DNA from: an uncultured bacterium
GTDB lineage: Bacteria > Babelota > Babeliae > Babelales > Babelaceae
DNA: 64,000 bases
Assembly: GCA_963848965.1 (NCBI GenBank)
Contig: CAWKFG010000001.1
Location: 256,001-320,000, forward strand
Reading direction: 5' to 3'
Shown: positions 52,461 to 53,683 of the stretch, one piece after another
Numbering within the stretch: the stretch's first letter is position 1
How the letters are laid out: the number at the start of each line of letters is the position of its first letter
Translations under genes and position numbers: made by a program
The notes under the pieces: generated by a model
Database searches by the model: none
Seen by the model: only the letters and a program-made list of their open reading frames with translations
What the model was told of the DNA's origin: nothing

Positions 52461-52500
52461 AAAAAACACCGAGGCAAAAAACCTCGGTGTTTTTGTTTTT
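52461..52500. terminator. Bidirectional terminator
   Basis: AAAAACACCGAGG-CAAAAAA-CCTCGGTGTTTTT. Confidence 0.85.
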
Positions 52501-52510
52501 ATACAGAATT

Positions 52511-53584
52511 TTAAGAAGCACGTGCTCTAAAGAAAGCGTACTTCTGGTCTAGCTTTTTAGCGAGCCATGGTACTGTAAATCCAAGCACGAGTCCGCTCAG
52601 CCATGCCCCAGATCGTTTTTTAATATCAGCTGATCTTGCCGGATTAGAGTGGTTAAGAGATCGTTGGAGTACTATAAGACTTGCTCCAAGGCCTCCTAAG
52701 CTGCCCCATCGTTGTGATTTTGTAAGCTGCGGTGATGTCCATAAGTGCTGTGCAACCATACCATACACAAATGCTGCGAGTCCTTCAGAGATAAGCTCAG
52801 GAGTAATGAATGGTGCTTGAGGAGCAGGACGAGTTGCATGTACTGTATGTGGATTGCCTACAGGGACGGCTTCTGGTTTTTCGTCTGCTGTATGTTTATA
52901 GCGTCTTACGTTAGGCATATCTTCTATATGACGTTTACAATGAGGACATGCCCGATCTGTTGAACTTTCTACAAGCTCGGTAAAACATACTGTATGATAG
53001 AGAGCTGCACAGTGAGCAGAACATTGTGTTACAAGGTCCTCTGCTTGAAATCGACCTTGGCAGAAATTACACTGTGTTTGGTCTACAGCGGGGTTATTCG
53101 ATGCTTGTGCTGCAGGTTTTGCTTGAGATGCTACTGGAATTTTTGTAGCTGTAGGAGCTGGCGTCTTTGGTGTAGGTGCTTTTGGTGCTGGAGCCTGCGG
53201 TGCTTGTGCAGGAGCAGCTGCTTTCTGAAGTTCGGTAATTGCTTTACGCATAAAAGCTTTTGGCATTTGAAACATTTTTCCGCTACAACTAGGACAAGGA
53301 AATGAGTTATCCATACTATATTTATAATTTATTGATTGTTGAGCAGCTTTATTCTTTTCAAAACAAGCGGGATGGTAACCCACTGTTTTGCAATTGAAAG
53401 GACACCGTGTTATAAGATCCGCTTCTTCAAACTCTACATAACAAATACCACATGCTACGGGATCAACTTCTTTAAAATCTTCAAGTTTAAGCTCTTTTGG
53501 TTGTTGATTCATACAAGAGCTCATTGATGTAGTAAGCATAATGCTTGTAAAGATAAGTAAATACTTTGTTCTAAATAGTTTCAT
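52511..53584 (-). CDS. Secreted/membrane protein with two C4HC3 RING-variant zinc fingers
   Basis: Two C-x2-C-x12-C-x3-C-x4/5-H-x2-C-xn-C-x2-C motifs, Pro/Ala linker, hydrophobic C-terminus; ATG 53584 preceded by GGAG. Confidence 0.8.
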   Translation of the reverse strand: MKLFRTKYLLIFTSIMLTTSMSSCMNQQPKELKLEDFKEVDPVACGICYVEFEEADLITRCPFNCKTVGYHPACFEKNKAAQQSINYKYSMDNSFPCPSCSGKMFQMPKAFMRKAITELQKAAAPAQAPQAPAPKAPTPKTPAPTATKIPVASQAKPAAQASNNPAVDQTQCNFCQGRFQAEDLVTQCSAHCAALYHTVCFTELVESSTDRACPHCKRHIEDMPNVRRYKHTADEKPEAVPVGNPHTVHATRPAPQAPFITPELISEGLAAFVYGMVAQHLWTSPQLTKSQRWGSLGGLGASLIVLQRSLNHSNPARSADIKKRSGAWLSGLVLGFTVPWLAKKLDQKYAFFRARAS

Positions 53585-53683
53585 AAAGATCTCCATTAAA
53601 ATGCTGCAAAAAAATTATTTATATCTTAAAATTGATTACTTTAGTTTTTAAACTATACCATATTCTGTAAAAACCTTAAATGG

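Follow-up and report, generated by a model that had tools for sequence, protein, structure and literature searches.

What would an uncultured bacterium do with a protein that joins two eukaryote-type zinc fingers to a hydrophobic tail? This question is raised by a gene on the minus strand at 52511..53584 of the window, our term for the whole stretch of 64,000 nucleotides analyzed here (positions 256,001 to 320,000 of contig CAWKFG010000001.1, GenBank assembly GCA_963848965.1, GTDB family Babelaceae). The source genome comprises 1.73 Mb in 5 contigs, is 88.7% complete and has a GC content of 37%. FtsH encoded in the window was 63-78% identical to proteins from metagenome-assembled genomes (MAGs) labelled Candidatus Dependentiae/Babeliales or unclassified, and at most ~55% identical to those of other phyla. 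Cultured Dependentiae (TM6) are described as obligate intracellular parasites of protists (PMC4378268, PMC6561590, PMC4776705). An original prediction from the letters of the sequence had named the product a candidate E3 ubiquitin ligase effector. We see roughly even chances that it is a membrane-anchoring mimic of RING E3 ligases, exported by Sec and a type II secretion system (T2SS), that uses ubiquitin-conjugating enzymes (E2s) of the host. The secretion of the protein, its membrane insertion and topology, E2 binding and ligase activity are properties that we infer. The coding sequence spans 357 amino acids (aa) from its likely start, M5, to the stop, and residues are numbered throughout on the 361-aa translation P0001.

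Two Cys/His fingers match RING families

Finger 1 (53285..53452, minus strand) has the pattern C49-x2-C52-x12-C65-x3-C69-x5-H75-x2-C78-x22-C101-x2-C104, in which the 22 residues separating ligand 6 from ligand 7 form a helical insert. Finger 2 (52937..53071, minus strand) follows with C176-x2-C179-x12-C192-x3-C196-x4-H201-x2-C204-x12-C217-x2-C220. Each finger presents eight Cys/His in cross-brace order, and the ligand order is C4HC3 in both, neither C3H2C3 nor C3HC4; patterns and spacings are exactly those given originally. All 16 putative zinc ligands (8 per finger) are invariant in P0003, an ortholog of 54% identity. Comparison of finger 1 with finger 2 by BLASTP found 13/35 identities (E 7e-8), and because of this match the two fingers appear to be products of a duplication, as had been proposed. 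Together with the invariant ligands and the Pfam RING matches below, it also argues that the finger arrangements are not due to chance.

The whole protein matched Pfam zf-RING_2 at 30.7 bits (cut-off 27.3, E 4e-7) and Prok-RING_1 (PF14446) at 29.2 bits, which is at the cut-off (29.1, E 8.8e-7). The RING-CH/MARCH, Nse1 and FANCL types suggested originally found no such backing: RINGv (PF12906) matched neither the protein at E ≤ 10 nor either finger at E ≤ 1, and zf-RING-like, the Nse1 type, reached 15.6 bits against a cut-off of 26.6. In RING-CH fingers, ligands 3 and 4 form C-x-C and the His at ligand 5 comes ~7 residues later. The spacings found here, C-x3-C-x5-H in finger 1 and C-x3-C-x4-H in finger 2, differ from this. 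PHD (PF00628) was matched below threshold by finger 2 only (17.8 bits, cut-off 24), as was SLX1_C (PF21202; 16.6 bits, cut-off 27.2), and finger 1 reached 14.8 bits on PHD_NSD, again below threshold (cut-off 23.9). An NCBIfam scan of the protein returned nothing relevant.

An AlphaFold2 model of the whole protein, built from a 10-sequence alignment, had a mean predicted local distance difference test score (pLDDT) of 74.6, with ranges of 84-94 and 77-89 in the fingers. In both modelled fingers a helix (76-89, 202-211) begins right after the His-x2-Cys pair that forms ligands 5 and 6, which is a trait of RING and U-box domains and not of PHD domains. A comparison with RING and PHD folds by Foldseek had been proposed as a check. 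Against the PDB it gave no match at E ≤ 0.001, but its top rows were RING E3 domains, with RING1B-BMI1 at 0.011 followed by TRIM25, RNF38 and RNF165; the PHD-containing entries PHF7 and MOZ stood lower in the list. VIA-align gave no title naming a PHD domain among the 50 rows listed. The claim of RING-type fingers was therefore borne out by profile, fold and family context. We read both fingers as apparently RING-type, not RING-CH/MARCH, Nse1, FANCL or PHD, and the assignment is firm because of the family context, in which relatives carry canonical RING-H2 fingers.

A family of signal-RING-tail proteins with a shifted zinc site

Relatives of the protein are few. Only 12 of 1.84 billion cluster representatives matched at E ≤ 1e-3, a word-indexed search returned nothing besides the protein and P0003, and a pattern-plus-alignment search of genome contigs with the finger-protein alignment gave 42 pattern matches, none confirmed. 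The best relatives share a layout of signal-like N-terminus, 1 to at least 5 fingers, low-complexity linker and the same C-terminal domain, and this order of parts recurs in P0003, P0004, P0007, P0009, P0011 and P0013. The family is defined here by a signal-like N-terminus, at least one RING-type finger, a low-complexity linker and a three-helix C-terminal domain with an N-P-x-R motif. Signal, RING(s) and tail occurred together in 9/10 open reading frames (ORFs) from relatives, the tenth being cut by the edge of its locus. A first profile of the C-terminal domain matched 4/261 Dependentiae species genomes and a broader one 11/261, some rows of the broader profile coming from genomes that it then matched. 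Its matches include 7/40 genomes of the bacterium's own taxonomic family, in three genera counting its own, and three weak matches elsewhere. Tandem arrays of three family genes were observed in G002 (L092/L094; G002:C1, ~1193.4-1196.7 kb) and G049 (L089/L095/L109; G049:C1, ~998.8-1001.8 kb), which suggests rapid local expansion. One G049 member is part of an ORF of 1241 codons, in which long internal repeats occur along with spacers rich in Pro, Ala and Gln.

A survey by regular expression located 27 fingers in 18 family proteins. His occupies ligand 4, as in ordinary RING-H2 or RING-HC fingers, in 16/27, and the C4HC3 order was found in 11/27, all in the six proteins closest to the finger protein. 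Distant members carry canonical RING-H2 or RING-HC fingers, and P0004, the closest multi-finger relative, scores 80 bits on zf-RING_2. In the family alignment ligand 5 (His) stays at a fixed distance from the strand before it, and ligand 4 changes from His to a Cys lying two positions upstream; in the finger protein and P0003, ligand 3 is also displaced two residues upstream. P0004 has all three Cys and looks like an intermediate of the shift. Because relatives of the same architecture carry ordinary RING-H2 fingers, the C4HC3 order appears to be a secondary shift, a derived state of zinc site 2 within a RING-H2 lineage, and would not be evidence for RING-CH or PHD ancestry. The lesson for annotation is that C4HC3 spacing by itself does not mark a RING-CH or PHD finger. 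If the proteins are active, the family would document a stepwise change of ligands from RING-H2 to C4HC3, which bears on the origin of the RING, PHD and RING-CH patterns.

RING domains contact E2s through residues at three positions: a hydrophobic one just before ligand 2, a Pro just after ligand 7 and a basic one just after ligand 8. Pro followed ligand 7 in 26/27 family fingers, Arg or Lys followed ligand 8 in 20/27, and a hydrophobic residue preceded ligand 2 in 19/27. Finger 2 of the protein has F178, L208 (at the Trp position), P218 and K221 at these E2-binding positions. Finger 1 has I51 and P102, and its counterpart in P0003 has Arg after ligand 8.

An export-type signal and a conserved helical tail

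Sequence and ortholog point to a signal-like segment at aa 5-28 (53513..53584, minus strand), in which three basic residues are followed by ~15 uncharged hydrophobic residues and then by small ones. The feature is conserved in P0003 and passes our signal rule; all signal calls reported here rest on this crude home-made rule rather than on a dedicated signal-peptide predictor. A signal or lipoprotein peptide had been predicted, and the first of these stands as an export-type signal. A lipoprotein is unlikely, as M-S-S before Cys28 makes a poor lipobox and P0003 lacks that Cys.

The Pro/Ala linker expected between the fingers is present as linker 1 (~aa 124-171; 53084..53227, minus strand), which is rich in Pro, Ala and Lys and predicted to be disordered (pLDDT < 50 at 144-171); aa 109-171 align to P0003 with 47% identity and 13 gap columns. 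Linker 2 (aa 227-261; 52814..52918, minus strand) is likewise predicted to be disordered (pLDDT < 50 at 237-260) and is poorly conserved, with 26% identity to P0003. The C-terminal domain (aa 262-361; 52514..52813, minus strand), whose three Gly-rich uncharged helices and N-P-x-R turn motif define the family, is the best-conserved part of the protein. Its identity to P0003 is 82%, whereas finger 1 reaches 66%, finger 2 44% and the linkers 26-47%.

In the whole-protein model the tail helices cover residues 266-287, 293-317 and 319-360, with N-P-x-R directly before the third. Three helices were also obtained when the tail was modelled alone from a 19-row alignment (pLDDT 90.6, predicted template modelling score 0.73). 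Every helix holds an uncharged stretch of 15-21 residues rich in Gly, Ala and Ser. The Kyte-Doolittle 19-residue mean was moderate (1.0-1.3 in the protein, 1.0-1.5 in the family), and the summed Hessa-type values of the helices ranged from +3.4 to +8. The 2-3 hydrophobic segments predicted after the fingers are thus present as three helices, but as transmembrane segments they are marginal. No fold relative of the tail emerged from Foldseek (best E 2.0), the ESM Atlas (no usable match) or a feature search (no match), and the 1.84 billion cluster representatives held no homolog of it outside the bacterial family. From the sequence we infer a membrane-association module with a hydrophobicity too weak for arrest at the bacterial Sec channel.

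RING proteins and export routes in Dependentiae

Across the phylum, zf-RING_2 matched 155/261 Dependentiae genomes at E ≤ 1e-4, of which 143 also passed the Pfam cut-off, with as many as 17 matches in a single genome. IBR (PF01485) matched 43/261, and neither profile matched any of 14 control genomes (0/14 each). In the bacterium's own genome (G000), zf-RING_2 matched seven ORFs and IBR three, two of them common to both, which makes eight ORFs with RING or RING1-IBR-RING2 (RBR) domains. All of these (8/8) passed the signal rule. This enrichment is modest, because 435/863 long ORFs of the genome also pass, a share similar to the 44% given for C. destructans (PMC6561590).

Three of the eight read as RBR-type ubiquitin ligases, at C1:572285-573379 (-), C1:573446-574414 (-) and C1:620655-622622 (+). 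All three begin with a signal-like segment. Two, which have an extra transmembrane (TM) segment, are tandem paralogs, and one has ankyrin-like repeats. Four further RING ORFs with signal-like N-termini lie at C4:581222-585511 (-), C1:455375-456958 (+), C4:340298-341119 (-) and C2:42716-44071 (+). Two of them encode ankyrin proteins: a repeat protein of ~1400 aa whose RING-H2 is internal, and one whose RING-H2 is C-terminal. Of the other two products, one has two RINGs and a Pro/Gln linker, and one has a C-terminal finger of the same C4HC3 variant. The papers on the phylum that were searched mention one RING protein at most. One search on bacterial RBR ligases had no such title among the matches listed, which does not mean that such work is unpublished.

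Three secretins and two T2SSE-type ATPases were found in the own genome. The three secretin-domain ORFs (1153, 818 and 796 codons) stand within 8 kb at C4:767163-774663 (+), and two gspD copies are reported as usual for TM6 (PMC4776705). VirB4, FHIPEP and DSBA had no match in the genome, although they matched 1, 4 and 8 of the 14 control genomes, respectively, and neither a type III nor a type IV secretion system was detected. Only Sec and secretin-type export were detected, and signal-like N-termini occur on all eight RING/RBR ORFs. For B. massiliensis (TM6), a RING finger protein had already been noted and T2SS given as the sole secretion system detected (PMC4378268). Neither U-box nor F-box-like domains matched the own genome; U-box had no match in the controls either, so its absence is not shown. 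The middle of a 136-codon ORF at C1:528128-528535 (-) matches positions 1-41 of the ubiquitin profile PF00240 at 29.8 bits and has no Gly-Gly end.

Proposed use of the host ubiquitin system and competing explanations

How might such a protein act? Its N-terminal signal would lead it to Sec, after which release to the host side would go through vesicles or through a type II-like, secretin-based system, which is the sole export route found in the own genome. The C-terminal three-helix Gly-rich domain, weakly hydrophobic, would escape arrest in the inner membrane and anchor the protein in a membrane, most likely that of a host organelle or vacuole. The two fingers, held on flexible Pro/Ala linkers, would recruit host E2~ubiquitin, finger 2 carrying the fuller E2-binding signature, and ubiquitin would be passed on to membrane proteins in the vicinity or to the effector. 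Use of the host ubiquitin system would be the most economical reading, because the bacterium belongs to an obligate-intracellular type (Dependentiae) and no E2 was detected. The protein is then most likely one of many ubiquitin-ligase mimics used on a protist host.

Several observations weigh against this account. Scanned singly, each finger falls below every Pfam cut-off, including that of zf-RING_2 (22.6 and 24.3 bits against 27.3). Finger 1 has S105 in place of a basic residue after ligand 8 and N82 at the RING-H2 Trp position, and finger 2 of P0003 has Ser, which is not hydrophobic, before ligand 2. Hence neither finger appears uniformly canonical across orthologs at the E2-contact positions. 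The tail helices are marginal as TM segments. Because about one long ORF in two passes the signal rule, the signal says little for an effector, and sixteen Cys/His ligands would have to cross the periplasm. If the bacterium is vacuolar, release into the lumen would not obviously put the fingers in the host cytosol. Finally, the E2 profile UQ_con had no match in the own genome (88.7% complete) but none in the 14 controls either, so that its absence lacks a positive control.

The first competing explanation, in our view unlikely, keeps the export and the membrane anchor and makes the fingers pseudo-RING or PHD-like modules that dock on host proteins, much as the finger of Slx1 binds Slx4, or sequester host E2s. 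Order and spacing of the C4HC3 ligands do fit the PHD consensus, the PHD, SLX1_C and PHD_NSD scores give it something to build on, and the E2-contact residues are incomplete in finger 1 and vary between orthologs. Yet the PHD and SLX1_C scores are all below their cut-offs and below the RING scores, and the helix predicted right after ligands 5 and 6 is a RING/U-box trait. Moreover, relatives of the same architecture are canonical RING-H2 proteins that keep Pro and Arg at the E2-contact positions, and a PHD-type chromatin reader is hard to square with an export signal and a hydrophobic tail.

A bacterial envelope protein, with an N-terminal anchor or cleaved signal, periplasmic Cys-rich metal-binding domains and a C-terminal inner-membrane anchor, would place the function in the cell's own envelope or division. 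We judge it improbable. The gene does sit between rpsT and a PBP2/FtsI-like gene, near ftsH; a relative in G049 is close downstream of ftsH, and one at locus L010, in a related MAG, further downstream. Signal-like N-termini are very common in the genome, and the GC content at third codon positions (GC3) of 0.237 indicates native codon usage. Against it stand a eukaryote-type RING family without a match in 14 control prokaryotes, and a restriction to few genera (11/261 genomes) and fast divergence outside the tail that are unlike core envelope genes. The ankyrin-RING and RBR proteins of the genome also have signal-like N-termini and no plausible periplasmic role, and the tail helices seem too weakly hydrophobic for ordinary inner-membrane anchors.

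Descent from a true MARCH-type RING-CH membrane ligase acquired from a eukaryote is very doubtful, despite the C4HC3 order, the hydrophobic segments after the fingers and a weak match to the c-MIR/MARCH8 RING (2d8s; phmmer E 1.7, Foldseek rank 21, E 0.15). RINGv and the RING-CH spacing both fail to fit, the family series runs from RING-H2 to C4HC3, and the C-terminal domain lacks relatives outside the bacterial family. The MARCH resemblance noted originally therefore holds for architecture and not for descent.

The study that defined Prok-RING_1, by Burroughs et al. in 2011, reportedly tied it to prokaryotic E2/Ub-like genes. A part in such an endogenous prokaryotic ubiquitin-like conjugation system is scarcely credible for our protein, although Prok-RING_1 shares its C4HC3 order, which a review gives as the order of prokaryotic RING domains (PMC11354881): the cut-off is reached only as a sum over two fingers (24.3 and 24.5 bits singly, at model positions 4-40 of 54, the first two thirds; 23.7 and 20.7 in a six-frame scan), no E2 was found in the own genome, the neighbors are housekeeping genes with no linked E2 or Ub-like genes, and the protein has an export signal.

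Relation to known ligases

An exported RING ligase mimic can be set beside several known proteins. By profile the best family for it, zf-RING_2, is that of eukaryotic RING-H2 ligases such as RNF38, RNF165/Arkadia-like and gp78/AMFR. Structural alignment of the modelled finger 2 with RNF165 gave a root-mean-square deviation of 1.8 over 49 residues at 24% identity, and identity to RNF38 was 23%. As in these ligases, Pro follows ligand 7 of finger 2 and a basic residue follows its ligand 8. Unlike in them, ligand 4 of the protein is a Cys N-terminal of the usual place, its ligand 3 lies two residues upstream, and the Trp position holds Leu in finger 2 or Asn in finger 1.

MARCH/RING-CH ligases join cytosol-facing RING(s) to membrane helices, as our protein would, and have the same C4HC3 order, but differ by their RINGv domain and its spacing; the tail of our protein has no homologs outside the bacterial family, and the protein carries a bacterial export signal. 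RNF5 and RNF185 are ligases that combine a RING with a C-terminal TM segment. The C-terminal C4HC3 RING of Slx1 resembles finger 1 in a phmmer alignment (C-x2-C-Y...CPF-x2-C...H-x2-C), but the protein has no GIY-YIG nuclease domain, its context is that of an exported protein, and only finger 2 scores on SLX1_C.

Few bacterial RING-ligase mimics have been characterized so far, though the kind is known. SneRING (SNE_A12920) of Simkania negevensis is reported as an experimentally active bacterial RING E3, and its source, as presumably that of the finger protein, is an obligate intracellular, amoeba-associated bacterium (PMC12591485). The RING of SneRING uses His as third ligand of the first zinc site, and its second site has an N-x2-C dyad where C-x-H would stand, which comes near the C-x3-C...H-x2-C found here, and its reported interactome includes GspD and SecDF. 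SneRING differs in having a single finger followed by an alpha/beta C-terminal domain and in coming from a different phylum, and we liken the two by description, not by sequence. Effector delivery is described there as mostly by type III secretion systems (T3SS), and the term "signal peptide" does not occur in the main text of that paper (PMC12591485). Within the phylum, the Babela massiliensis RING protein was taken to be a possible E3 that acts on the ubiquitin system of its host; this is one annotation-level mention, and the likeness to our protein is again by description, not sequence (PMC4378268).

Bacterial mimics of RING ligases are thus already known; what is new is the architecture, in which two fingers with shifted ligands precede a conserved tail not described before. 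If the proteins are active, the family would show how a parasite with T2SS only reaches the ubiquitin system of its host, and the tail would supply a new membrane-targeting module. A broader proposal is more tentative, and we think it rather less probable than its opposite. The protein may be the reference member of Dependentiae-specific, Sec/T2SS-exported multi-RING ligases that are inserted in host organelle membranes by an undescribed Gly-rich three-helix anchor. It would then be a bacterial counterpart of MARCH/RNF5 and part of a phylum-wide arsenal of exported eukaryote-type ligases (zf-RING_2 155/261, IBR/RBR 43/261) that works without T3SS or type IV secretion systems (T4SS).

Gene start and neighborhood

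The mechanical ORF at 52511..53596 (minus strand) encodes the 361 aa of P0001 and extends 12 nucleotides (nt) further upstream than the likely start. Translation probably begins at the second ATG (53584, M5), because GGAG at 53591-53594 stands 6 nt before it, the database copy P0002 has a length of 357 aa, and the ortholog P0003 begins with MKLF at the same Met. Recent horizontal transfer of the gene was considered and rejected on its native-looking GC3.

The finger gene has ftsH, rpmB and rpsT on one side and the PBP2/FtsI-like and xerC-like genes on the other. Between it and the convergent rpsT lies a hairpin resembling a bidirectional intrinsic terminator (52462..52494, no strand assigned), with a 13-14 bp stem and T-runs on both strands. 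The closeness of the gene to ftsH in the window is shared by the G049 family gene. In L010, a signal-RING-H2-hydrophobic-tail ORF is downstream of ftsH-rpmB-rpsT with another ORF between. It adjoins a signal-bearing Gly/Arg-rich ORF of 128 aa (L010:5646-6032, +) and an ORF of ~50-residue tandem repeats (L010:7050-7817, -).

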